From Chloroflexota bacterium (lineage in GTDB: Bacteria > Chloroflexota > UBA6077 > CF-72), in the NCBI GenBank assembly GCA_051006215.1, contig JBPCIO010000141.1, positions 50,455 to 114,454 of the forward strand: DNA of 64,000 nt, given 5' to 3'. How positions within the stretch are numbered: position 1 is the first letter of the stretch; every line of letters begins with the position of its first letter. Under the pieces are notes generated by a model. The model searched no databases and was not told the origin of the DNA. It was given only the letters and a program-made list of their open reading frames with translations. This document shows positions 7,305 to 62,740 of this stretch, piece after piece. The position numbers and the translations under genes are program-made.

Positions 7305-7931
7305 TCAGGCGGCGTACCACGCCGCGATGCGCGGAAACAGCGTATGCGCCAGCGCGGCGACATCGTCGTTTAGGCGTGGATCGAGTGGGTCCGTTTGAGC
7401 GGTCAAGTACAGTTTGTAGTAGTCGTTCGGGCGACCCAGGATGGCATCGAATACGGCCAGGCTCCAGGGCAGCGGCCCGTTACCGAGGAGTCCGCGGCGC
7501 TCCCCGTAGGCGTACATGACGAGCCAGTGCTGCTGGCCCTGCTCGGCTATCAGGCCGCTCACCCCGTCGCCAACGCCTAACTGCGGATCACCAGACGCCG
7601 GCTCCACGGTGTACCCGCCCCCCAGGAACGGCACCTCGGCCCCCGAGCCGTACAGCTTCGGCGCCTGGTTTGAAAGAACCGTCAACGTGGCCGTGCCGCG
7701 ATCAGAGCTACGGTACACACGCGAAACTTGACGCGTGGCCAAACCCGCGTGGTTGGTGTTTTCTTCGACGACTTCGCCGCCCACCGCCCACGGCTGGACC
7801 TGGTACAGGTCGTCGGCCACTGGCCAGCGCGCGGCTCCAGCGCCAGGAGGCTCGCCGGCAGCCGCGTAGAGTCCGGCGCTGATCAGTAGCCCTGCAATCA
7901 GAATGAAGTAGCGATGGTGGGGAGTTTGCAT
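7305..7931 (-). CDS. Exosortase-associated EpsI-like protein (putative)
   Basis: About 200 aa with an N-terminal TM/signal segment (YFILIAGLLISAGLYAAA). It lies immediately downstream of the exosortase gene and overlaps it by about 33 nt, the usual position of EpsI in exosortase loci. The assignment is by context and size, not by a diagnostic motif. Confidence 0.45.
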   Translation of the reverse strand: MQTPHHRYFILIAGLLISAGLYAAAGEPPGAGAARWPVADDLYQVQPWAVGGEVVEENTNHAGLATRQVSRVYRSSDRGTATLTVLSNQAPKLYGSGAEVPFLGGGYTVEPASGDPQLGVGDGVSGLIAEQGQQHWLVMYAYGERRGLLGNGPLPWSLAVFDAILGRPNDYYKLYLTAQTDPLDPRLNDDVAALAHTLFPRIAAWYAA

Positions 7932-8770
7932 CCAACGGTCCGGCTCAACACGAGCAGGCCCACCACAGCCAATCCAAACAGGACCAGGCTGGATGCGCCA
8001 TGAAAGAACCCGAGTGCAGCATCCTGGCCAAAGTCGGCGGCAACCACAAGGACCAGGGTCACACGCAGGGTATTGGCGAGGATCACCAGGGGCACCACGC
8101 CCAGGAACACGGCCAGCTTGCCTGGCAACGGTCCTCGAGTGGCATAGATCCAGAGTGCAGCCACGGACAGCAGAGAAAGCAGCGAGCTCATGCCTGAACA
8201 GGCCTGAGCCACCACGAACGCGTACTGGGGCGTGTCAGCTGCCGAATGCAGTAACAAGCCATCCCGAACCACGTCCAAGCCGATGGCATGTCCGGACAGC
8301 GCGGCGCCTTTGGCTGTCACGTCCTGCAGAGCGAATCCGACCGAATTGAGCAAGCCGCGGTACAGGCCTAGGCCAAACACCAGGAATGAGGCCGGAAATG
8401 CCACGATGCGTGCTGCGCGCCAGCCCCACAGGTAGACGACTACGCCGACCAGCAGCGGGCTGACTGCGAGTCCGGCCAGCGTGTTGATCCCGGTACGGCG
8501 GCTGACCAGTGTCACAAGGATCGCCCCGGCCACCATCAGCAGCCCTATGCCACTGCCCGCGCCGATACTGCGTCGTAGGGCGCCGCGGCGCCACCCCACA
8601 ATGGCTAGCGCAATTGGAGGTATGACAAACCCATATGTGAACTCCTCGTCTGTCGACCACACCTCGACCGCATGAGCGAAGGCCGGGTAGACCACGACGA
8701 CGAGCGCCAGGATCAGCCCCAGCCGGACGACTACTGCCCACCCACGGCCGCGGGCCAGGACGGTTGGCAT
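7898..8770 (-). CDS. Exosortase (EpsH/Xrt family) transpeptidase
   Basis: 290 aa, 8 predicted TM helices. Conserved N-terminal motif region (VWSTDEEFTYGFVIPP, variant of W..D..YSHG.L.P). Catalytic Cys in AQACSGMSSLL. Conserved Asn/Arg in ILANTLRVTL. ATG at 8770. Confidence 0.75.
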   Translation of the reverse strand: MPTVLARGRGWAVVVRLGLILALVVVVYPAFAHAVEVWSTDEEFTYGFVIPPIALAIVGWRRGALRRSIGAGSGIGLLMVAGAILVTLVSRRTGINTLAGLAVSPLLVGVVVYLWGWRAARIVAFPASFLVFGLGLYRGLLNSVGFALQDVTAKGAALSGHAIGLDVVRDGLLLHSAADTPQYAFVVAQACSGMSSLLSLLSVAALWIYATRGPLPGKLAVFLGVVPLVILANTLRVTLVLVVAADFGQDAALGFFHGASSLVLFGLAVVGLLVLSRTVGCKLPTIATSF

Positions 8771-24460: not shown

Positions 24461-26005
24461 ATGCTCCGCGTCATCGCCGGCATCGGCGCCCTTCAGGTTG
24501 CCGTAACCCTCGTCAACATGCTTCGGTCGAAGGCAGTCGCCATTCTCCTCGGCCCGGAAGGGGTTGGGGTGATCGGCCTGGTCGACCAGCTCGTGCAGCT
24601 CGTACTGTACGTGAGCACGCTCAGTCTGCCGTTTGCGGCTGTCCGCTTTCTCTCGCGCGCCCACAGTGAAGGCCACGCAGCGTTTGCTCAGAGCTTTGGC
24701 AGCTTCTTGCGGGCGCTGCTCATGTTGACCACCATCGGCGCAATTATCGGCGGTGGACTCGCGGTGTTTCGCCCGGACCTTCTCGGCCAACAGCTGTCCG
24801 ATTACCGCACGTTCCTTATTCCGGCCCTGGTCGGAGTCCCGGCCATGGCACTGCACGGATTGTTCAGCAACGTTCTGGCCGCCGCCCGCCGCACCCGGGC
24901 GGCGGCGCTCATGGCGATGGTCATCGCGCTGACGCTCTCCGGAGCAACCGTGATCGGCATTCTGCTGGATGGGGTACGCGGTTTTTACTGGGGTGCCCTC
25001 ATTGCGAATGTGCTGATAGCGGTCGGTGTGGCAGTCTACCTGCGGCGGAGTTTGAACCTGCTCCTGTTCGGCCGCGACCACGGCGTCCGCCAGGAGCTGC
25101 GCAAAAATCCGGACATCTTGCCGTTTGCGTTCTGGTTCTACGGGGGATCGCTCGCCTATTCGTTCGCCTTCTTTGTGGCCCGCTACGCCGTACTGTCGAA
25201 TTTCGGGGCAGCCGAGGCCGGGCGCCTTCAGGTCGGGATCGCCCTGTATACGGCCCTCAATCTCGTGCTCGGACCAGCCAACGGACTGTATCTCACGCCG
25301 ATTCTGAATCGACGCATCCCCCTGGTCGAGAAGTTCGCCGCCGCGCTTGAGTTTCAGCGCAAGCAATGGCTGGTCATCCTCTTGCTGGCTATGGGCATGG
25401 TGCTTTTTGCGCACCTCGCAGTGGTCGTCCTGTTCTCGACAGCTTTTCTGAGCGTGGCCGGCGTCGTGGCTCTGTTCGTGATAGCGCAGACCATTTATCA
25501 GTTGGCCGCCGTCTTGCAAGCCCTGATAATCGGCCTCGACGACCTGCGCCTGTACGGGACGACCGCCGTCGTCGGCCACCTTGCTCTCGCTGGTCTAGCC
25601 TGGGTGCTGGCACCGTCTTTGGGAATCATGGGGGTCGGCATAGCGTTCCTGGTGAGCGCCATACTCCACGTGGCGATGACCTTCTCGCGTCTGCGCCTGC
25701 ACTTCGGGATGATGCTGTCGCGCCGGCACGTCGTCGCAGTCGTGTACGGCATCGGGGCCCTGGCGCTGGCAGCGCTACTCACCAGTTCGCTCGATCCCTG
25801 GCAACCGCAGGGGATAGCGGTCCGCATCCTGGCGTACGTCGCCTTTGCGGTCAGCCTGCTCGCGCTGCTCGAGGGTCGCGAGCTTCGACAACTGGTCGTA
25901 CGCGGCCAATCCGTCTGGTTTCCCCAAGGCACGGAGCGCGTGCCCAGGATGGGTGGGGCGACCTACCGACGTCTGACCCGACGCTTCTTCCCCGAAGTCT
26001 GGTGA
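24461..26005 (+). CDS. Wzx-type polysaccharide flippase (MOP/PST family)
   Basis: 514 aa with about 12-14 predicted TM helices, matching the polysaccharide-biosynthesis-protein (MOP superfamily) architecture. Confidence 0.8.
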   Translation: MLRVIAGIGALQVAVTLVNMLRSKAVAILLGPEGVGVIGLVDQLVQLVLYVSTLSLPFAAVRFLSRAHSEGHAAFAQSFGSFLRALLMLTTIGAIIGGGLAVFRPDLLGQQLSDYRTFLIPALVGVPAMALHGLFSNVLAAARRTRAAALMAMVIALTLSGATVIGILLDGVRGFYWGALIANVLIAVGVAVYLRRSLNLLLFGRDHGVRQELRKNPDILPFAFWFYGGSLAYSFAFFVARYAVLSNFGAAEAGRLQVGIALYTALNLVLGPANGLYLTPILNRRIPLVEKFAAALEFQRKQWLVILLLAMGMVLFAHLAVVVLFSTAFLSVAGVVALFVIAQTIYQLAAVLQALIIGLDDLRLYGTTAVVGHLALAGLAWVLAPSLGIMGVGIAFLVSAILHVAMTFSRLRLHFGMMLSRRHVVAVVYGIGALALAALLTSSLDPWQPQGIAVRILAYVAFAVSLLALLEGRELRQLVVRGQSVWFPQGTERVPRMGGATYRRLTRRFFPEVW

Positions 26006-32012: not shown

Positions 32013-32178
32013 GCCTTGCCCTCCAGAGCTTTACCGTCGCACGAACCTGCTCGCGCAATCCCACGCTCGGAAGCGTTGCAAGCGCGCGTCTTGACCGCTG
32101 TTGGAGGTCGGTTGCGAAGTAGTTGGCCTGCAAGTCTCTACCGTGGGTCAACCAGCGCTCTACGGACGGCCGAGCAGC

Positions 32179-33993
32179 ATGGCCTACTGTGCTCGTCAGA
32201 TGTCCCACACAGGGTCGGCGCTCGTGGACCAACTGGCCGCGGCGGGCCGCCAGAACCCCACACTGCCGACCATCCGCAGCGTCGCAGATGCTCCTTTCGA
32301 TTGGTGCCGACGCAACGTCACGGCTGCATGGCTGATGGTCGCCGTAGTCCTCGGCCTGCTGCAGGCGGCGTACTTCCGCGACTTCATCAATCCCGACGGC
32401 ATTGCGTACCTCGACATGGGCGACGCCTATCTGCGGGGTGATTGGCTGACCGCCATCCGCGGCCACTGGAGTCCTCTGTATGCATGGCTGATCGCCGCGG
32501 TGGTCCGAGTCCTCCAGCCACCGCCCAGCCTCGAATTCCCGCTCGTCCACGTGGTAAACGCAGGTATCTACCTGGTTGCCCTGGGGACCTTCACGTTCCT
32601 GCTGCGTCAGATCGAAGCCACGCTCAGCACTCCTGCTCTCACGAGCACCGCCGCGCAGGCGACCCGCTTGCCGGCTTGGGTCTGGAAGTCTCTGGGTTAT
32701 GCGGTCTTCCTGTGGTGCACACTGCGATACGGTCTGCTGGAACTGGTGACACCGGACCTTCTGGTGTCGGCGCTGGTCTACGCAATTGGAGGGGTTGTGT
32801 TGCGGGTGCGGCGAAGGTCCGGATGGCAGTCATCGGTGCTTCTGGGCGCGTTGCTCGGGCTCGGGTACCTTGCCAAGACCCCCATGTTGCTGCTGGCGCC
32901 TGTATTCGTGGCCGCCAGCGTTTTGCTCATTCCGGGGCGTGCCAAGCGGCTCGTACACGCAGGTCTCACGCTGTCGGTACTGGCCCTGGTAGCAATCCCA
33001 TTCGTGCTAGTGCTGTCGCTTGCCAAGGGCAGGCTGACGGCTGGCGACAGCGCGATGCTGAACTACCTCTGGCTCGTCGACGGAGTGACGCCCTACCTTC
33101 ACTGGCAAGGAGGCCCCGCAGGGTCAGGTCAGCCCGTGCACCGGGACCAGGTTCTGTTGGAGCAACCAGCCGTCTACGCCTTCGACAGCCCGTTCTGGGT
33201 CACCTATTCGGCCTGGTACGCGCCTGATTACTGGTACGAGGGCGGCACACCTCACTTCGTTCTCAGCGGGCAAGTCCGAGCGATTCTTGGCGGACTGACG
33301 GTGTACGAGAGCATGGCGAAGCAGCTTGCTCTGCCGTTGGTGGGGACTGCCGTGCTGGTGTTGATGCGGCCACGGGGTTGGAGCTCAGGATTTGCACCAG
33401 CGTTGACCTTGATTGCTCCATCGATTACCGCACTCTGCATGTATTCGATCGTGATTGTGGAGGAGCGCTACGTGGGGCCCTTCGTCGTCCTGTTGTTTGT
33501 CGCGCTACTCGGTTTGATGATCCAACTGCCGTTATCCAAGTGGAGTCGCACCGTCGTCACCGGCGTAGCGGCCGTGATGCTGGTGTCGCTGATGCTCCCA
33601 GCGGGTAAGGCTGCATCCGAACAAGGGAGCTCCGTTAGCACGGACGTTACTCGTGACCACCTCCTTGCGCCAGACGAGCAAGCGCAAGTCGCTATGGGCC
33701 TCCGAGCGGCTGGTCTTCAGCCAGGTGACCCGGTGGCTAGCGGGGGTCGCGCTATCGACGACGCCTGGGCACGACTGGCTCGCGTCAGAATCGTGGCCGA
33801 AGTAGGCGACCGGGAGGGCGCGACCATGCTTGCCACGGATGCGGACGCACGCGCACGGGTGCAGGCGGCGCTTCTGCAAACCCATGCCGCGGCAATCGTA
33901 GCCCGCGACTGGCCAGGGCTCACCGGCGACCCAGGCTGGGTTGGTATAGGCGGCACGAGCTACTTCTATTACCTCATGCCCAGTCGGTCGTAA
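32179..33993 (+). CDS. GT-C-like multi-pass membrane glycosyltransferase (putative)
   Basis: About 12 TM helices with periplasmic loops. It is divergent from the DPM1-like gene. The start is uncertain (ATG 32179 or 32203); the ORF-track TTG 32101 is less likely. Confidence 0.55.
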   Translation: MAYCARQMSHTGSALVDQLAAAGRQNPTLPTIRSVADAPFDWCRRNVTAAWLMVAVVLGLLQAAYFRDFINPDGIAYLDMGDAYLRGDWLTAIRGHWSPLYAWLIAAVVRVLQPPPSLEFPLVHVVNAGIYLVALGTFTFLLRQIEATLSTPALTSTAAQATRLPAWVWKSLGYAVFLWCTLRYGLLELVTPDLLVSALVYAIGGVVLRVRRRSGWQSSVLLGALLGLGYLAKTPMLLLAPVFVAASVLLIPGRAKRLVHAGLTLSVLALVAIPFVLVLSLAKGRLTAGDSAMLNYLWLVDGVTPYLHWQGGPAGSGQPVHRDQVLLEQPAVYAFDSPFWVTYSAWYAPDYWYEGGTPHFVLSGQVRAILGGLTVYESMAKQLALPLVGTAVLVLMRPRGWSSGFAPALTLIAPSITALCMYSIVIVEERYVGPFVVLLFVALLGLMIQLPLSKWSRTVVTGVAAVMLVSLMLPAGKAASEQGSSVSTDVTRDHLLAPDEQAQVAMGLRAAGLQPGDPVASGGRAIDDAWARLARVRIVAEVGDREGATMLATDADARARVQAALLQTHAAAIVARDWPGLTGDPGWVGIGGTSYFYYLMPSRS

Positions 33994-37228: not shown

Positions 37229-37708
37229 CTACGGAATGGGTTCGAAGTGCTCGATGTTGCGGCGCAGGCCCTCGTATATCAGAACGGGGATCCAGAGGAT
37301 CAGCATAGCCAACACTGCTTCGACCACCACCGCGTATCCGGGACCCACCAGAATCTGGCCCTGGCCGATGTTCAGCCGATGCGCCACCGCGACTACCAGC
37401 ACCAGCAGTAGCGAGACAGCAACATAGATCGGCACCGGCCTTCGGGTGCGATCTGCCAGGACGCGGAAGCCAGCCAACCAGAACGTACCGAACAGCAGCG
37501 AAAGCGGCAGCAGGATTGCCGCCTGTACGACCGGTGAGACCGTGAAGTACGTCCCCGTCCACCAGCCAGCCCACAGCGCCAGAACGTATACGCCAGCGAC
37601 CAAACCGGTCAGGACGGCCGCCGTGCCAAGGACAAGTAATCGATCGGCATGGCCGCGCTGACGCGCCCAGATGACGAGGCCACCCACGATCAAGACGGTG
37701 GCCAGCAT
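37229..37708 (-). CDS. Small 4-TM membrane protein of unknown function
   Basis: Strong GGAGAGGGGGAG SD upstream of ATG 37708. About 160 aa, four hydrophobic helices. The ORF-track start 37966 is an over-extension. It is divergent from the His-Asp repeat protein. Confidence 0.5.
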   Translation of the reverse strand: MLATVLIVGGLVIWARQRGHADRLLVLGTAAVLTGLVAGVYVLALWAGWWTGTYFTVSPVVQAAILLPLSLLFGTFWLAGFRVLADRTRRPVPIYVAVSLLLVLVVAVAHRLNIGQGQILVGPGYAVVVEAVLAMLILWIPVLIYEGLRRNIEHFEPIP

Positions 37709-38031
37709 GACTGCTGCTCCCCCCTCTCCGGATCGGAGAAACGCTATGTACCCCGTGCTTGCATGGTCCACCTGAGTCAAGCACCTAATCCTACGCGGTC
37801 GCGGCGCTGCGTCATCACGATATGCTCGGGCTGGCTCGGCCTCGCCCTCGTCACCGGAGCGGCACAACCCATCTCCAACTGGTAACGGCGAGGCCGGCCA
37901 GGACGCCGAGCAACCAACATTCGACCGTAGGGTTGACGGAAGCTCTATGAGCGTGGCGCCAAACACAGGGGGTGTGTGCGATTATTTGAGTACGCAAGCT
38001 TGCTCACGCAGCCTTGCCTATAGGAGGAACG

Positions 38032-38757
38032 ATGCAACACCGACTGATCAGCATGGCTGCAGGCGTAGCCTTGCTGCTGACTGCAGGCGGGGGCGCCGCG
38101 CACGCGCAAACAACCAGCGACGCCGCCACCCACGACGTGACCACTGACGGCGTCCACGACGCCACCCCCGACCCAATGCATGACGCCACGCCCGACGCAA
38201 TGCATGACGGCGTGCATGACGTGACCGTTGACGGCGTGCATAACCCCACGCCCGACGACGCGATGCATGACGTGAGTGCTGAGGGTGTCCATGACGCCCC
38301 GCCCGACCCGATGCACGACGCCACCCACGATGTGACCACTGACGGCGTACATGACGCCACTCCGGACCCGATGCATGACGCGACCACCGACGGCGTGCAT
38401 GACGCCACGCCCGACCCGATGCATGACGCCACCCACGATGTCGTCCCCGGCGCCACGCACGACGTCAACCCCAGCGCCACGCACGACGCCAACCCGGGTG
38501 CCGCGCATGACGCCACCCACCCCGGCGCTACGCACGACGTGAACCCCGGCGCTACGCACGACGTCAATCCCGGCACGACGCACGATGTCAACCCTGGTCC
38601 GACGCACGATGTGAGTCACCCCGCGCCGAGCGCCACGCCTGAGCTGGACAGCCTTTTCTTGTTCGGCACCGGTGCTACTGGCGCAGCCGGCTATGGGCTC
38701 ATGCGAGTTCGCGCTGGCCGGCCCAAACAGTCTACAGCCGACGACTCAGAAAGCTAA
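38032..38757 (+). CDS. Secreted His-Asp octad-repeat protein with a C-terminal PEP-CTERM-like (PEL variant) sorting signal; candidate exosortase substrate
   Basis: AGGAGG SD 6 nt upstream of ATG 38032. Signal peptide (MQHRLISMAAGVALLLTAGGGAAHA). About 25 HD dipeptides at 8-residue spacing. The C-terminus reads PELDSLFLFGTGATGAAGYGLMRVRAGR (Pro-Glu-X motif, hydrophobic helix, Arg cluster) followed by an acidic tail. Confidence 0.75.
   Translation: MQHRLISMAAGVALLLTAGGGAAHAQTTSDAATHDVTTDGVHDATPDPMHDATPDAMHDGVHDVTVDGVHNPTPDDAMHDVSAEGVHDAPPDPMHDATHDVTTDGVHDATPDPMHDATTDGVHDATPDPMHDATHDVVPGATHDVNPSATHDANPGAAHDATHPGATHDVNPGATHDVNPGTTHDVNPGPTHDVSHPAPSATPELDSLFLFGTGATGAAGYGLMRVRAGRPKQSTADDSES
38100..38630 (+). 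repeat. 24-nt (8-codon) tandem repeat array encoding the His-Asp octads
   Basis: Repeated units such as gacgccacccccgacccaatgcat / gacgccacgcccgacgcaatgcat, and a later variant cacgacgtcaaccccggcgctacg. This array generates mirror-image spurious ORFs on the opposite strand. Confidence 0.7.
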
Positions 38758-38773
38758 GTGAGACTCCCGCCCT

Positions 38774-40051
38774 GTGCTTTCCGGAATGGCCGGGGCTCGG
38801 GACTCCCTCCACGCCCGGCTCGCTGTGCAACCATCGGCTAACGGTGGCGGCGGCTTGATCCGCTGGTGGTTCGCCGCCGCTGTCGTAGGCATGGGCGCCC
38901 TGGCGGCCGGTTGGTTGAGCTACGAGTTCTGGCGGCTGCTCTTCCAGCCGGGCATCATGGGCGCCGTCGACCTCCTGCTGCGCCGGGACGAAGTGCACCG
39001 CTGGTTCGGCGGCCTGCCCGTGTACAGCGAGCTCAGGACTGCCACGTACCCGCCCGCAAGCATGGTCTTGCTGTGGCCGTTGGTTGGCTGGCTGGACGCC
39101 ACGGCCAGCCGCTGGCTGTGGGCGATTAGCACGATCGGGGCGCTGGCCTGGCTGGTGTGGTTGGTGGTGCACGCGAGTGGGGCCAGGACCCGCTTCGAGA
39201 TTGCCTTCGTAGCGTTGCTGCCCCTGGCGTCTTATGCCGCTGGCGCTGCCATCGGCAACGGGCAGCTGATCGTACAGGTGCTGCCGATCCTGCTGGCCGC
39301 CGTGCTCTTGCTCCGGTCAAACGAGTTACGCGGCTGGAAGTGGAGAATTCTCGCGGCCGGACTGCTCCTGGCCAGTCTGGTGAAGCCAACCCTGGCTACT
39401 CCGTTCTTCTGGATTGCGCTGTTCGCCGCCGGCTCACCCTGGCCAGTCGTGTTCGCGAGTGCGGGTTACGTTGGGCTTACACTCCTGGCCGCCCAGTTTC
39501 AGCCCACACCTTTGCCGATACTTCTGCGCGAATGGCTCGCGCGCAGCCAAATCACAGCGACTGGCAGTAGCGGAGCCAACCTTCACGCGTGGCTTGCAGC
39601 GCTGGGACTTGGTGATTGGATCCCAGCGGCGTCACTGCTGGTCCTCCTGTTCTTGGGAGCCTGGGTATACCGCCATCGCCACGCTGATCTCTGGCTGCTT
39701 CTGGGCGTCACGAGCATCGTCACCAATATGTGGTCGTATCACCTCTGGTACGACGACCTCATCGTGGTCCTGGCCGGCATCAGCGTCTTTCGGCTCGCCC
39801 GCTCGGTCGCGCCTACACGCCCCCTGATGCTGACCCGCGCGCTGCTCGCGGCGTTGGTCCTGACCAGCCTGGCCCCGGGTGGACTGTACACTCTTCCGCC
39901 ACCCTGGAATGGGGTGTACGTGTGGTTGCAAACCGTCGTTCGGGTGGCTGTCCTGGTGTACCTCATCGGCGAGACCCGGCGACAATCGGCTCTGAGTGTT
40001 GCACACCCATTGCCGGCGCCGAGAGCATCGACGGCGCAAACGATCGTCTAA
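38774..40051 (+). CDS. DUF2029/GT87-like multi-pass membrane protein (putative polyprenol-phosphate-sugar dependent glycosyltransferase)
   Basis: 425 aa with about 10 TM helices. Its size and topology resemble GT87/PimE-like mannosyltransferases. It lies directly downstream of the PEL-CTERM protein. Confidence 0.45.
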   Translation: MLSGMAGARDSLHARLAVQPSANGGGGLIRWWFAAAVVGMGALAAGWLSYEFWRLLFQPGIMGAVDLLLRRDEVHRWFGGLPVYSELRTATYPPASMVLLWPLVGWLDATASRWLWAISTIGALAWLVWLVVHASGARTRFEIAFVALLPLASYAAGAAIGNGQLIVQVLPILLAAVLLLRSNELRGWKWRILAAGLLLASLVKPTLATPFFWIALFAAGSPWPVVFASAGYVGLTLLAAQFQPTPLPILLREWLARSQITATGSSGANLHAWLAALGLGDWIPAASLLVLLFLGAWVYRHRHADLWLLLGVTSIVTNMWSYHLWYDDLIVVLAGISVFRLARSVAPTRPLMLTRALLAALVLTSLAPGGLYTLPPPWNGVYVWLQTVVRVAVLVYLIGETRRQSALSVAHPLPAPRASTAQTIV

Positions 40052-52896: not shown

Positions 52897-55200
52897 TCAG
52901 CGGACGCTCACCGTCGCAGCGCTGGCGTTCCAGCTGTAGAGCGTCCCCCAGCCAGGCGAGAACACGCCGATCATGACCGTGTACCTACCGCTGTTCGCAT
53001 CGGCAGACACCTGCCACGTGGCAGTCAGGCTGCGTGTCTGACCGGCGCTGAACGATCGGTTGTCCCACGCTTGCTGAAACACCTTGGTGCCCGAGGCGTC
53101 GTACACCTCGAGGTCGACCAGCGCCGAGATCGCCGTGTTACTCCTCACCCGCGCCGTGAGTGCCACGTTGGTGCCCCGCTGGGCGACCGCTGGGGTGATG
53201 GCGCGGGTGGTGAATCCGATCTGGGTCGAGCCCGGCGTTGGTGTTGGCGTTCTGGTTGGCATCAAAGTCGACGTACTGGTGGCAACTGGCGTATTGGTGG
53301 GCACCGGCGTGCTGGTCGGCTTCGGAGTTGACGTGTTCACCGGGCTCGTCGTCGCAGTCGCAGTCGACGCCACGTCGGCGGTGACCGAAAACGTGCCGGC
53401 TGAGCTATTCCAATTCTCGAGCGCGCCCCAGCCCGGACCAAAGACGCCAACCATGATCGTGTACGTCCCGGTGGCAGCGGTACTGGGCACCTGCCAGGAC
53501 GTGCTGAACAGCCTCGGTTGTCCGGCGCTGAAGGCCTGGTTGTCCCAGTACTGCTGCGACACCTTGGTAAACGACGGGTCGTACACCTCGACGTCGATCA
53601 GCGCTGGCGATGCTGGCGGATTCGTGACCGTCGACGCTATCGAAACGATCGCACCCCGCGCGATCGGATTTGGTGAAGCGGCGGCGCTGCTGGAAAACCC
53701 CGATTGCCCCGGCTGCGTAGCCGTGGCAGTCGGCGTGACCGCAGGGCTCGGAGTGGAAGTCGGGCCGGTTGTCGGTGTGGAGGTCGGGCCTGTGGTTGGC
53801 GCCGAGGTTGGCGTACTCGTCGGCGGCGGCCCGCCGCTCAGCGGAATCGGGTTCGTGTAGTACGCCTGCCCCTGCAGACGGACGTAGCCACCATCGTCGT
53901 CCGGCACGCTTGACACGTGCGTATTGCAGATCTGTCCGGAGCTGATGCCGTCTGAGGTGCAGAAAGAAGCTGGATTCGTAATCCCATCGTTCTTGGAGTC
54001 GGTGTACGTCGTGTTTCCGGCATTGCCAGCGCCAAACATCGCACCCACGATGCCAACATTGATCAGCTCCTGAACGTGGCCGAAAATGTACTCGGCGCGG
54101 TTGTCCTGGAAATGACCGTCGGTATTGTTTTCGGTATCGAAGTACTGGTTGCCGAGTGGGACCTGCCACAGCAGCATCGGCCGGTTGGCGTCGGCCACAA
54201 TTGCAGCCTGCAGGTACTGCTCCCACCTGGCGAAGTTCGGAAAGCTCACGTTGTTGCGGTCCCACCACCGGTTTTGCCCAAACTGGACTTTGTACTGCCC
54301 GGCATCACGATCCAACGGATCGTTGAACAGCAGCTCGTGGGCTCCGAATTGGCTCACGAAGGCGCCCACCTGTTGCCCCAGCGCAGCCGCGTTGGTGTTG
54401 GAGCTGGTGTCCGTACCGATGTCGATGCCCGTCGCCCAGGCGGACACGTGGTACGCCAGCAACACGTTCGGCGCATACATGTCGCGGATGTGCGCCAGGG
54501 CCTGCGTGAACCCAGCGTAGGTGTTCGAATACACCGCCACGTCGGCGTAGCCAGAGCTACTTACTGACGCTTTCAGCAAACCAGGGTCGTTGCCCTGCCC
54601 GGTGCAGAAGCCGAAGCACGCGCCCACGTTGTTGTTGACCGCTTGCATGGCGTACCCGCCAGTGAAATCTGGCTCGAGGTCAATCAAGGCCGTCTTGCCA
54701 AAACCCTGGACACCGTCGTATGTGCCCGTCCCGAGGCGCTTCATGAGCAGGGCAAAGTTCTGGTAGTACGCGCTCATGAGCGGGACCGTATTCAAATTGG
54801 TGATGTCCTTCTGATTCTCGTTGCAGTTGGTGCAGCTGCCACTACTCTGCAGCAGCTCGTAGTATGGAAACACGGGTATGTAGCCGTGTTGCGCGGACTC
54901 CAGCGCATAGTTCGAGGCAAACGTTCCACTGGAATTCCATGTCTCCCAACCCGCTCCGGTGTTGACTCCGCCGACCAGGTACTGGTACCGGTAGTCCCAG
55001 CGAATGCCACTCTGCGGCATCCACGTGTCACCCTGCCCGGCCGCCAGGCCAAATCCGAAATGCGAAGGCAGGCCACTCGGTACGGTCTGGGCTGGGGCAG
55101 CCTGCAAGGGCAGGCCGAGTGGCACAGCAAAGACGAGGGCGGTCAGGCAGCTCAGAGCTGTCCGTGTGGCCGAAAACGGGTATTTTGCAGATAACAGCAT
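52897..55200 (-). CDS. Secreted multidomain carbohydrate-active protein: N-terminal putative glycoside-hydrolase-like domain, Pro/Thr linkers, two tandem C-terminal beta-sandwich (CBM-like) repeats
   Basis: Signal peptide from ATG 55200 (MLLSAKYPFSATRTALSCLTALVFAVPLGLPLQAAPA). Two PT-rich linkers. Two ~100-aa repeats at about 55% identity (…LIDVEVYDPSFTKVSQQYWDNQAFSAGQ… / …LVDLEVYDASGTKVFQQAWDNRSFSAGQ…). Confidence 0.6.
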   Translation of the reverse strand: MLLSAKYPFSATRTALSCLTALVFAVPLGLPLQAAPAQTVPSGLPSHFGFGLAAGQGDTWMPQSGIRWDYRYQYLVGGVNTGAGWETWNSSGTFASNYALESAQHGYIPVFPYYELLQSSGSCTNCNENQKDITNLNTVPLMSAYYQNFALLMKRLGTGTYDGVQGFGKTALIDLEPDFTGGYAMQAVNNNVGACFGFCTGQGNDPGLLKASVSSSGYADVAVYSNTYAGFTQALAHIRDMYAPNVLLAYHVSAWATGIDIGTDTSSNTNAAALGQQVGAFVSQFGAHELLFNDPLDRDAGQYKVQFGQNRWWDRNNVSFPNFARWEQYLQAAIVADANRPMLLWQVPLGNQYFDTENNTDGHFQDNRAEYIFGHVQELINVGIVGAMFGAGNAGNTTYTDSKNDGITNPASFCTSDGISSGQICNTHVSSVPDDDGGYVRLQGQAYYTNPIPLSGGPPPTSTPTSAPTTGPTSTPTTGPTSTPSPAVTPTATATQPGQSGFSSSAAASPNPIARGAIVSIASTVTNPPASPALIDVEVYDPSFTKVSQQYWDNQAFSAGQPRLFSTSWQVPSTAATGTYTIMVGVFGPGWGALENWNSSAGTFSVTADVASTATATTSPVNTSTPKPTSTPVPTNTPVATSTSTLMPTRTPTPTPGSTQIGFTTRAITPAVAQRGTNVALTARVRSNTAISALVDLEVYDASGTKVFQQAWDNRSFSAGQTRSLTATWQVSADANSGRYTVMIGVFSPGWGTLYSWNASAATVSVR

Positions 55201-55710
55201 TGCTTGAACCTCGGGCCTGGTCCCGTCTGAACCGACCACGTCAGATACACGGCGCGTGCGTGTCTAAGGGGACGGCTTGAAGGCCTTCCCGTCGTCGCCA
55301 CCTGGAGATGTATCAGGCGGCCTCGGAGCGACTTAGCTGCACGCTGGAGTCCCACATGGACTCCAATCTCGGACAGTTTCGTCCGATTTGCTCACCGGCA
55401 GGTAACGGAGCCGTGAGCCAACTGTGCACGCCACGACAACAAACGCGCCTGCGCGCCCGATGGTTATGGGCGGAGCGACCGAATTCAAGTGCGGCCGGCA
55501 AGGAGGTGGAGCTGCGCGGACGGCGTGCGCCAACGTGACCGGCAACACTGCCAGCCCCGCTCAGGTCCAGTGCCTGAGGCGTTTGAGTTCGATCGGACTC
55601 AGCCCCTGCTTCAACTGGGCTGGCAGGGCCAGGTTGTCTGTCAGATTGGTGACCAGGGGGCAGCCGAGCCCCAGGGGCGCTCGGAAGCGAAGCTAGCTCG
55701 TCCAGGGCAC

Positions 55711-60789: not shown

Positions 60790-60898
60790 GCACCCGGGCG
60801 GCCCTGCGTCCGGCTGACGCCAACTGGCAACCCAAGTACCATCCTGCTGTTAGCATGACGCTGAGCGGGTACGCTGGTTGAGTCGGAGGTTTGCTGAG

Positions 60899-62740
60899 AT
60901 GGTGCCACGGCAGGCAGGGGGCGGCCGCTTCTGGCGCGCGCTGCAGCGCGTTCGCAATTGGTCGCCCAGCCTCGCGCTAGGGGTCTCGCTCGTGCTCGGC
61001 GCTGTGCTCGGCCAATCGTCGCTGGCGACGGCGCAGCCTGCCGGACCTGGACTCGACTCGGGCTTCTTCCCGGCCACTGGCTACCGCATTGGCTCGCCCG
61101 AGGTACTTGCCTACTTCGAGCATCGAGGCGGCGTGCGGACGTTCGGCTACCCCGTGTCAAACGAGTTCCCGTTGCTGGGCCAACGCGTGCAGATCTTCCA
61201 ACGTCAGATGGTCCGGCTAGCCGCAGACGGGACGGTCAGTACCGCCAACATCCTCGACCCTGACGTGCTGCCCGTCAGTCACATCGACGGGCTGAGCCTA
61301 CCCTCGGCTGACCCCGAACTGCTTGGCGGGGCACCCGTTGCCGGCAGCGACAACTACACTGCGCAGGCGCTGTCGTTCGTCAGCGTGTACGTACCCGACA
61401 CCTGGAATGGCCTGAACGTGAATTTTCAAACCACGTTCTTGAATACGGTCACGTGTGCCGACGCCTATGGCGCTGACCCGTGCGACGAGTCGCAGCTGCC
61501 GGTCCTGGCGCTCGAGCTGTGGGGCCTTCCGACCAGCCTGCCGACGACGGATCCTGTGAATGCCGACTTCGTCTATCAGCGGTTCCAAAAAGGGATCATG
61601 CACTTTTCACGCGCAACTGGCTTCACCCAGGGGTTGCTGATCGGAGATTGGCTCAAGCGTATCCTGGTGGGTGTCGACCTGTCGCCTGACATTGGCATGG
61701 ACGTCCGCCATTCACGTTTCTTTGCGCAGTACGCACCGTCGCGCCCGTTGGCTCTGGATCGACCGGCCGACCTACCAGATACGTCTCTGGCGCAAGCCTT
61801 CCGAGCCGACACCCTGTCTGCGGCTGGCCAGACCCAGCTCGAGCCGACGCTACCCGCCAACGTCGCGTCGACGGCGACTTCCGTGGCGCTGACGGCTACC
61901 GCCATAACCGCAACCCAGGTGTCCTTTCAGAGTACGCAAACGGGGCTCCAGGGAACCCAGGTGGTGCTCACCCAAACCGCGGCCGCGCTCGCCGCGACCG
62001 CCCTGGTCGGGCAGTTCACGCCGACGCCGACCCCAATGGCGGCCGTCAGCACCGTACCAGTGGTCAACCTCGGCTGTATGGGCGATGAACAGTTATGGTT
62101 TACCCCCCGCAGGCCGAACATAGGCGTCCACGTCGACATCTCGGTCACTTCCCAACGCCACCACGACGCGCGCTCCATGCGATTGACCGGTCCCCTCGAT
62201 CCTGGCCCAGTCACTGAACGTACGGGCCCGCTGGGTTTTGTCTGGACCTGGACCGTGGTCCCGGCAGTCGAAGACTTCCACCAGTGGACCTTCTACGCCG
62301 ATGGCCTGCGGCCGTGCATCACCTCCGGCTTCAATGCGTACCTGCCACTCGGCGCGACGTCCACGCCCACGCTTACCCCACAGGCGACCAATACGCCGGG
62401 GCCGACCTCCACGCCCACGTCGACGGTGGTTCCGATGCCGAGCGTTGCCAACGCGACCCAGAACGGGACCTGCGGCTCGGTGATCACCGTCGTTGGCAGC
62501 AACTTTGGTTCGCCGCCTTCCAATGTGGGCACCAACGTCCAGTTGCTGGCTGGTCCGAGTAACGCCGGCACGCCCAAGCTGCTGAACCTTATTGGCGGGT
62601 CGAACACGCAGCTGACCGCCACGTTGCCGAGCAACGGCTTGGTTTCGGGTGGCGGCTATGCCCTCATCGTGTCCAATAACGGCGGCGCTTCGAACACCGT
62701 ACCCTTTACCGTAACCGGCGCGCCAGGCACGACCTGTTAG
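60899..62740 (+). CDS. Secreted protein of unknown function with PT-rich linker and C-terminal IPT/TIG-like domain
   Basis: GGAGG SD upstream of ATG 60899. Signal peptide. Thr/Pro-rich linkers. A C-terminal Ig-like segment (GTCGSVITVVGSNFGSPPSNVGTNVQLL). Confidence 0.5.
   Translation: MVPRQAGGGRFWRALQRVRNWSPSLALGVSLVLGAVLGQSSLATAQPAGPGLDSGFFPATGYRIGSPEVLAYFEHRGGVRTFGYPVSNEFPLLGQRVQIFQRQMVRLAADGTVSTANILDPDVLPVSHIDGLSLPSADPELLGGAPVAGSDNYTAQALSFVSVYVPDTWNGLNVNFQTTFLNTVTCADAYGADPCDESQLPVLALELWGLPTSLPTTDPVNADFVYQRFQKGIMHFSRATGFTQGLLIGDWLKRILVGVDLSPDIGMDVRHSRFFAQYAPSRPLALDRPADLPDTSLAQAFRADTLSAAGQTQLEPTLPANVASTATSVALTATAITATQVSFQSTQTGLQGTQVVLTQTAAALAATALVGQFTPTPTPMAAVSTVPVVNLGCMGDEQLWFTPRRPNIGVHVDISVTSQRHHDARSMRLTGPLDPGPVTERTGPLGFVWTWTVVPAVEDFHQWTFYADGLRPCITSGFNAYLPLGATSTPTLTPQATNTPGPTSTPTSTVVPMPSVANATQNGTCGSVITVVGSNFGSPPSNVGTNVQLLAGPSNAGTPKLLNLIGGSNTQLTATLPSNGLVSGGGYALIVSNNGGASNTVPFTVTGAPGTTC

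Follow-up and report, generated by a model that had tools for sequence, protein, structure and literature searches.

What might a protein composed almost wholly of regularly spaced His-Asp pairs be doing among genes for exopolysaccharide (EPS) synthesis? The question is raised by a 64,000-nucleotide stretch of DNA (the window) from a Chloroflexota bacterium (assembly GCA_051006215.1, contig JBPCIO010000141.1, positions 50,455–114,454), in which a complete gene at 38032–38757 (+) specifies a product of 241 residues plus stop. The answer that we favour, with little more than even confidence, is that this product is a lineage-specific Chloroflexota exosortase substrate, the mature part of which would be a disordered His-Asp polyanion binding divalent cations at the cell surface or in the EPS matrix. 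The sequence-only reading with which this work began had located the gene exactly: the list of open reading frames (ORFs) and the translation place the ATG at 38032 and the end of the stop codon at 38757.

The gene and the layout of its product

The gene is preceded by a Shine-Dalgarno sequence read directly from the DNA (AGGAGG, 38022–38027 (+), 4 nt 5′ of the ATG). No sigma-70-like promoter was found in a promoter scan around the gene, and the terminator scan returned only two terminator-like sites, both on the minus strand inside the gene and within chance expectation. Upstream by 29 nt lies a perfect 10-bp palindrome, GCAAGCTTGC (37994–38003), inside a 24-nt imperfect one; it is unique in the window, yet a palindrome of this kind arises in 11 of 100 shuffles and it is therefore not significant.

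The product opens with the signal peptide that had been claimed for it. By inspection, this is of the Sec type (MQHRLISMAAGVALLLTAGGGAAHA, 38032–38106 (+)), with a charge in the n-region (R4), a hydrophobic core of 17 residues and predicted cleavage between AHA and the following Q, and it resembles the N-terminus of a 93-residue metagenomic protein, P0020, to which we return below. A short lead-in, TTSDA, separates it from a repeat array of 162 residues (32–193). There follow a linker (VSHPAPSA) and the motif TPELDS, the presumed exosortase recognition and cleavage site (38611–38652 (+)), and then a Gly-rich hydrophobic segment, LFLFGTGATGAAGYGLM, which comprises 17 hydrophobic or small residues and leads into a basic cluster, RVRAGRPK (38653–38727 (+)). 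The cluster ends nine residues before the C-terminus, the remainder being an acidic extension (QSTADDSES, 38728–38754 (+)); some proteins with the same kind of tail (P0020 and P0051) have similar extensions. The predicted mature part is 179 residues long.

The repeat array

The array was said to consist of about 25 His-Asp dipeptides at a strict spacing of eight residues. The number is overstated, there being 21 HD pairs and one HN, or 22 in all. The period of eight does dominate (16 of 21 successive H[DN] intervals), and it is the strictness that fails, with three intervals of four residues (GVHD, ATHD and ATHD) and two of nine. Residue autocorrelation is 0.54 at a lag of eight as against 0.03 at a lag of seven and 0.06 at a lag of nine. 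Over 10,000 shuffles the number of HD pairs reached a maximum of 11 (21 observed, 4.5 expected) and the number of spacings of eight a maximum of four (15 observed, 0.1 expected). The eight-residue periodicity is far beyond chance.

Two dialects of the repeat had been recognized, and they are present as described. The first (residues 32–136, 38125–38439 (+)) is built of xxxD tetrads paired into octads such as VTTDGVHD and ATPDPMHD; it contains three 4-residue half units, one 9-residue unit and a diverged duplication of a 22-residue block. The second (residues 137–193, 38440–38610 (+)) consists of seven units of the type VNPGATHD, one of them of nine residues. At the DNA level, Tandem Repeats Finder (TRF) recovers the expected 24-nt repeat as three arrays (38158–38209, 38350–38438 and 38427–38594; 77–92% matches), together with higher-order periods of 12, 48, 108 and 135 nt, and long repeat copies share merely 60–79% identity. 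Because the DNA repeats are this degenerate (60–92% identity overall), length variation by slippage appears less likely than the sequence-only reading had implied.

Coding strand and selection on the His-Asp pair

The duplicated 22-residue block, ATHDVTTDGVHDATPDPMHDAT, occurs at residues 32–53 and 97–118. Its two DNA copies differ at eight nucleotides, and all eight differences are synonymous in the plus frame (pS, the proportion of synonymous sites that differ, is 0.51; pN, its non-synonymous counterpart, is 0 over about 50 sites), while in the in-register antisense frame all eight change the amino acid. Among the 16 eight-residue units the His column is His in every case, encoded by CAC in seven and CAT in nine, with 63 synonymous and no non-synonymous pairwise differences; the Asp column has 15 Asp and one Asn, and the remaining six columns vary freely. 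Pairwise pN/pS among the units is 0.36 in the first dialect and 0.22 in the second. The plus frame is thus the coding frame, and purifying selection holds the His-Asp pair, whereas divergence has proceeded at synonymous sites. Gene conversion would have erased the synonymous differences too and is not an explanation of the pattern. These comparisons show repeats old enough for such divergence, with the His-Asp pair as the selected feature. Repeat drift without retention of His and Asp, which was to argue against a metal-ligand role, is not seen, as far as paralogous repeats within one gene can tell (His 16/16, Asp 15/16).

An ORF of 224 residues lies antisense to the gene (37945–38619 (−)) and exactly in register with it, and has a similar G+C content at third codon positions and a similar codon score. 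Codon usage fails to separate the two frames (0.141 bits per codon in the plus frame and 0.122 in the antisense). As a real gene this ORF is ruled out by the block differences just given; it is a by-product of the repeats and a trap for gene callers.

The C-terminal tail and its family

The C-terminus had been called sortase-type. There is no LPXTG in the sequence, and the order TPELDS, hydrophobic stretch, Arg cluster is that of an exosortase signal resembling PEP-CTERM, which is defined by a tripartite layout of short motif, membrane segment and Arg cluster (PMC1569441). As in PEP-CTERM substrates, the membrane segment and basic cluster stand at the extreme C-terminus.

Similar tails were found in about 100 metagenomic proteins, the sole taxon-named member of which is from Chloroflexota. 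A first, word-index search gave three such proteins, and among the best 150 hits in a scan of 1.84 billion representatives about 45 carried the tail; a six-sequence tail alignment then recovered 62 metagenomic loci. From 45 representatives we derived the consensus P-x-P-[SA]-A-T-P-E-L-D-S-L-x-L-F-G-[TS]-G-x-x-G-x-x-G-Y-x-L-x-R-x-R-A-x-R-R, in which T, P, E, S, Y and one Arg are invariant. The third position of the motif is L in 42 of the 45, with V, M and P once each (P0124 having PEP). When 27 of the family tails were compared with curated models, weak matches were led by those of the PEP-CTERM type: floc_PepA (7/27), PF07589 (4/27, best E 0.022) and TIGR02595 (2/27, best E 0.0045). Also seen were single weak matches to C-terminal anchor models of other kinds and to a handful of unrelated families. 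One tail of the 27 weakly touched the LPXTG-type model TIGR01167 (E 0.01), because a hydrophobic-plus-basic layout is common to both. The His-Asp protein would seem to work like PEP-CTERM substrates and to be remotely related to them.

Within the window, the His-Asp protein is the only ORF bearing a TPELDS-type tail. The cores of other family members are (NG)n, (QG)n or short Cys-containing peptides. Near-identical TPELDS mini-proteins were found that differ solely in the number of Asn-Gly repeats, being 103, 105 and 107 residues long in one group and 114 and 120 in another; the (NG)n loci are L012–L019 (for example L014:1270–1578, L016:607–927, L017:1683–1997 and L019:3779–4087). Because Asn-Gly copy number varies between such loci, the low-complexity cores of the family evidently expand and contract.

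The exosortase and its link to the tail

The presumed processing enzyme is an exosortase of the EpsH family (7898–8770 (−); PF09721, E 4.5e-46), encoded in the same EPS locus about 30 kb from the His-Asp gene. It passes only generic models (TIGR02602, 119.5 against a cut-off of 105.55; TIGR04178, 58.2 against 23) and none of the named Xrt subtype models, scoring 135.1 against 208 for XrtA. The accessories of the XrtA system likewise fall below their cut-offs (amidotransferase TIGR03108, 548.9 against 816.9; chain-length determinant TIGR03007, 48.3 against 278.85). An NCBI protein from the metagenome-assembled genome (MAG) of a Chloroflexota bacterium matches the enzyme at 100% identity, and hundreds of relatives share 60–86% identity with it, all taxon-named ones being Chloroflexota/Chloroflexi. 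Cys190, Arg235 and His256 are invariant in 13 members of this clade (homologs P0155–P0274), which from its model scores looks like an unclassified subfamily. An EpsI-like (DUF3485) exosortase partner is encoded at 7305–7931 (−) (PF11984, E 2.5e-5; 24.5 bits, just under the cut-off of 26.1).

In eight of the 62 metagenomic loci (L010, L020, L022, L023, L047, L048, L049 and L058) a tail gene sits 22–100 nt 5′ of, and on the same strand as, an exosortase homolog 60–74% identical to that of the window. This adjacency ties the tail to the window's exosortase clade. An EpsI homolog comes after the exosortase in L047, L049 and L058, and a weak EpsI gene likewise in L072.

The tail genes standing 5′ of the exosortase-EpsI pair resemble "founder substrates" and encode either globular proteins of about 180–370 residues or (NG)n mini-proteins; these lengths are counted from stop to stop, and several are cut by contig ends. 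Neither the window nor L072 has a gene at this position. On the contig of the closest relative (P0156, 86% identity) the position is occupied by an uncharacterised gene of 232 residues.

What seems new here is the pairing of a TPELDS-tail family with an unclassified, Chloroflexota-centred exosortase clade, the His-Asp array being the only cargo of its kind in the family. If this is true, exosortase/PEP-CTERM-type sorting extends to an uncultured clade of Chloroflexota with its own signal, and annotators gain a concrete motif-enzyme pair, that is, TPELDS and an exosortase outside the curated subtype models.

Orphan status and origin of the gene

No protein was found that combines signal peptide, His-Asp array and tail. 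The word-index protein search for orthologues gave only tail matches and one eukaryote-like repeat protein (P0001, NDATHDAS repeats). A HMMER scan of the 1.84 billion representatives gave 217 hits, some matching in the tail only and the others being low-complexity proteins with unrelated xxHDxxxx repeats; nor did any of the 54 tail ORFs from the metagenomic loci unite the three elements. A metagenome scan with HD-repeat peptides gave no match, and exact look-ups failed to find the product in a collection of 15 billion proteins, though neighbours on the same contig are present there. The other matches with HD octads were a mixture of unrelated low-complexity sequences, and a literature search on His-Asp repeat proteins returned only unrelated papers on "HD domains" and Huntington. 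A scan of a genome collection with the neighbouring GT87-like gene as query gave only a distant Deltaproteobacteria MAG lacking synteny.

Among these matches, P0001 (L002:5001–5615, on a eukaryote-like contig) is non-secreted and has nine perfect NDATHDxS octads; its 8-residue HD period is apparently convergent. Two very long proteins, P0030 (2019 residues) and P0017 (2410 residues), carry long degenerate xxSxxH[DNE]x octad arrays outside any Pfam model, one opening with what looks like a signal peptide and the other containing a VWA domain. These may represent a separate, structured family of His-Asp octad repeats.

Homologs of the GT87-like protein led to two syntenic relatives, L005 (75% identity) and L006 (71%, Chloroflexota MAG GCA_036391945.1). 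In both, only 118–176 bp lie between a membrane-protein gene and the GT87 gene (membrane-protein start and called GT87 start at 753 and 871 in L006, 304 and 480 in L005), as against about 1 kb in the window, where the gap holds the His-Asp gene. The segment absent from both relatives (~37800–38770) comprises the gene and about 230 bp upstream, intergenic conservation ending near 37800. No flanking direct repeats marking an insertion were found at the gene. More distant relatives (L007–L009, L073) have other neighbours and lack the HD gene. The sequence-only reading held that absence of the gene from relatives that keep the exosortase would argue against a substrate relationship. The gene is absent from the syntenic site in L005 and L006, on contigs too short to show whether the exosortase is retained; such absence is in any case a weak criterion, because one exosortase serves many substrates. 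Independent support for the relationship comes from the eight loci in which a tail gene stands just 5′ of an exosortase homolog.

A clue to origin is provided by P0020, which matches the His-Asp protein in three places: the signal peptide (17 of 30 residues identical; tblastn against the window, E 7e-7), the linker (SPHLPST as compared with SHPAPSA) and the tail (72% identity over 32 residues). Only about 23 residues lie in between. Since P0020 shares both ends, this suggests that the array arose by tandem amplification of a 12/24-nt unit inside a P0020-like mini-protein and then diverged under selection for His-Asp. The ancestor would have consisted of a signal peptide, a short low-complexity linker and a tail, and the expansion would have occurred between the conserved membrane-protein gene and the GT87 gene. 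The protein would then illustrate cleanly, in nature, how a repeat array can originate when a mini-protein expands in tandem and can afterwards be kept by selection.

One might argue instead that only the signal peptide and tail matter, for instance as a primer or carrier for exosortase-dependent attachment, and that the HD octads are filler, a recent and nearly neutral repeat expansion. The wide differences among family cores and the variation in their copy number would fit such a view, as would the occurrence of the HD version in one genome only and its absence from the syntenic relatives. We consider it distinctly unlikely, since the array is under purifying selection, with no non-synonymous and eight synonymous differences between the blocks, full retention of His and pN/pS of 0.22–0.36, a pattern that gene conversion does not account for.

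Composition and proposed function

The mature part is rich in Asp (18.4%), Thr (14.5%), His (13.4%), Ala (12.8%), Pro (12.8%) and Val (10%) and lacks Lys, Arg, Cys, Trp, Phe, Tyr, Leu and Ile. With a pI of 4.4, it has a computed charge of −33 at pH 7, −15.5 at pH 5.5 and −1.5 at pH 4.5. The suggestion that no globular domain is present is borne out: sequence searches of Pfam, NCBIfam and PDB with the protein gave no meaningful match, and AlphaFold2, run without homologues, returned a mean predicted local distance difference test (pLDDT) score of 47.6 and no secondary structure. The model and composition are consistent with an intrinsically disordered polyanion.

We propose that after Sec export the C-terminal tail would hold the protein in the membrane, where the exosortase, through its Cys/Arg/His set, would cleave at or near PEL and hand the mature chain on to the cell surface or the EPS matrix. 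Export, anchoring, cleavage and release are drawn here by analogy with PEP-CTERM systems, with gene architecture and adjacency as their support. The roughly 22 imidazole-carboxylate pairs would then bind divalent cations, the likeliest ligands being transition metals (Zn, Ni, Cu, Co, Fe(II)), which are favoured by His, and the protein, bound to the matrix, might store or buffer cations or serve as a cross-linker. Judged by composition, a metal-binding role in the EPS matrix is plausible; composition also underlies the suggestions of mineral nucleation and of glycosylation made in the sequence-only reading. For a polymer that binds metals in the matrix, the protein would be a simple candidate and one that could be expressed.

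The same composition could describe a pH-responsive or Ca/Mg-dependent polyelectrolyte, in which an Asp every four residues cross-links EPS through Ca2+ or Mg2+ and titration of His tunes swelling or the nucleation of carbonate or phosphate. The computed charge, which passes from about −33 at neutrality to about zero by pH 4.5, and the xxxD tetrad register across residues 32–136 speak for it, and the sequence offers nothing to separate a Ca/Mg reading from one based on transition metals. An invariant His beside Asp is, however, more characteristic of sites that bind Zn, Ni or Cu than of those that bind Ca, and a Pfam search and inspection of the sequence revealed no Ca motifs of the EF-hand, RTX or thrombospondin type. 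We regard this alternative as highly improbable.

Several points weigh against a cation-binding exosortase substrate. Only one MAG contig is known to carry the gene and no orthologue was found, which limits the weight that it can bear. The tail has P-E-L where PEP-CTERM has Pro-Glu-Pro, and neither it nor the whole protein matched a curated PEP-CTERM model, even at E 10. Because (NG)n or (QG)n takes the place of the HD repeats in other members, the tail family as a whole does not need His or Asp. Next to the gene there is neither a regulator that responds to metals nor a transporter, and no operator can be recognised. Finally, the location of the protein would depend on the envelope architecture of this Chloroflexota lineage.

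A bolder version, which we think rather doubtful, would join two claims. The TPELDS tail and the unclassified exosortase clade would constitute an undescribed Chloroflexota-centred exosortase subsystem with its own signal and an often adjacent founder substrate, and the His-Asp protein would be an extracellular "metallo-mucin," covalently attached to the matrix, whose approximately 22 single His-Asp sites capture transition metals or template mineral in the EPS of a soil bacterium.

Comparison with known systems

The nearest known counterpart is the PEP-CTERM/exosortase (EpsH) system (PMC1569441; TIGR02595, PF07589), with which the His-Asp protein shares a signal peptide, a tripartite C-terminal signal, a Thr-rich low-complexity mature region and an EPS locus containing an EpsH-family exosortase with conserved Cys, Arg and His. 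It differs in having T-P-E-L-D-S rather than PEP and in reaching no curated model. The host belongs to the Chloroflexota, its exosortase passes generic models and no named Xrt subtype, and among the scanned ORFs of the window we noticed none for the PrsK/PrsR/PrsT regulators of the sigma-54 type. The TPELDS mini-proteins (P0020 and the (NG)n proteins of L010–L019) have the same overall architecture, and in P0020 the signal peptide and tail are homologous and the linker is related; their mature parts, however, are 20–40 residues of Asn/Gly/Gln or Cys-containing sequence, and the His-Asp octads are seen nowhere else.

Metal handling has precedent among PEP-CTERM proteins. ZepA of Anabaena is a PEP-CTERM exoprotein that handles zinc (PMC10957091), and Co(II) induces PEP-CTERM genes in Geobacter (PMC7726332). 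Like the product proposed here, ZepA is exported; its handling of divalent metal is experimentally supported, and the N-terminus of its mature form is flexible and rich in His and acidic residues. Unlike the His-Asp protein, which is repetitive, disordered and an orphan, it is globular and conserved, with a defined His site, a canonical VPEP and Zur-regulated contexts, and the two have no sequence similarity. The flocculation-associated PEP-CTERM protein PepA (NF033554), which has a part in floc formation in Aquincola/Zoogloea (PMC9850573), is another exosortase-dependent matrix protein in an EPS context. Its model is the one most often weakly matched by the family tails (7/27), although such matches involve the tail alone and fall far short of any cut-off, and the mature regions are unrelated.

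Other repetitive metal binders are more distant. The array contains no HH, HxH or HxxH, its single H-D pairs being 8, 4 or 9 residues apart, and it is therefore unlike histidine-triad or poly-His proteins. Nor does it resemble the Ca-binding RTX nonapeptide, the period being eight, with no GGxGxD and no match to a Pfam repeat family.

His-rich metal-binding repeats are found in Plasmodium HRP2 (AHHAAD repeats), Helicobacter Hpn and the His-rich loops of ZnuA. These resemble the array in being low-complexity, probably disordered sequences rich in Ala, His and Asp with many potential imidazole and carboxylate ligands. They have no homology to it, and the protein described here is presumably extracellular and carries an exosortase signal.

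The surrounding EPS locus

The sequence-only reading placed the gene next to an EPS locus, and it in fact lies inside one, the whole window reading as a single large locus of this kind. Putative EPS functions include a Wzy-like protein, a chain-length determinant, an HlyD-like protein, a priming sugar transferase and an XrtA-like amidotransferase. There are about a dozen GT2/GT4 glycosyltransferases and three GT-C membrane glycosyltransferases (one GT87-like and two PMT_2-like), together with acyltransferases, methyltransferases and a deacetylase. Scans of the window for Rfam families and tRNAs found nothing. A tblastn search of a plasmid collection with the DegT-type aminotransferase of the window returned only matches below 60% identity, scattered among many genera.

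The GT87-like gene (38774–40051 (+); PF09594) begins 17–68 nt 3′ of the His-Asp gene, and its product matches P0275, encoded in an NCBI Chloroflexota MAG, at 100% identity. The terminator scan found no terminator-like site on the plus strand between the two genes, which are probably co-transcribed. Because the GT87-like gene is conserved in relatives that lack the repeat gene, it is not dedicated to the repeat protein.

These neighbours raise the possibility that the protein is a glycosylation scaffold, that is, a mucin-like Thr/Pro-rich spacer O-glycosylated by the GT-C enzymes of the locus to give a hydrated matrix glycoprotein, with the His-Asp pairs incidental or serving as recognition elements for the enzymes. 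The Thr and Pro contents (14.5 and 12.8% of the mature part), the recurrence of TP, TT and ATPD, the closeness of the GT87-like gene and the presence of two PMT_2-like GT-C genes would all suit such a role, and Ser/Thr-rich PEP-CTERM substrates have been proposed to be glycosylated (PMC1569441, PMC7726332). Yet the invariant columns of the array are His and Asp, whereas Thr and Pro positions differ between units, and the GT87 gene and its neighbours persist in relatives without the repeat gene. We judge it unlikely as a full account; it is compatible with metal binding, the two not being mutually exclusive. The cation-binding exosortase substrate remains the reading that we prefer.

Divergently paired with the GT87-like gene in three genomes is a gene for a multi-pass membrane protein of about 175 residues belonging to no family (37229–37966 (−) in the window; L006:226–753 (−); L005:2–304 (−)). 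The upstream end of the window ORF has no counterpart of the Met start in L006. A ferric-reductase-like transmembrane protein (PF01794; 34338–35090 (+)), an unusual companion for glycosyltransferases, is also encoded in the locus, and a similar gene adjoins the GT87 gene in relatives of 60% identity (L007:11255–11944 (−)). Four large ORFs of the window have little or no family assignment (52897–55239 (−), 60878–62740 (+), 32101–33993 (+) and 24461–26005 (+)): three encode proteins of 514–630 residues outside any Pfam family, and one a protein of 780 residues with weak MG2/BsuPI-like matches.

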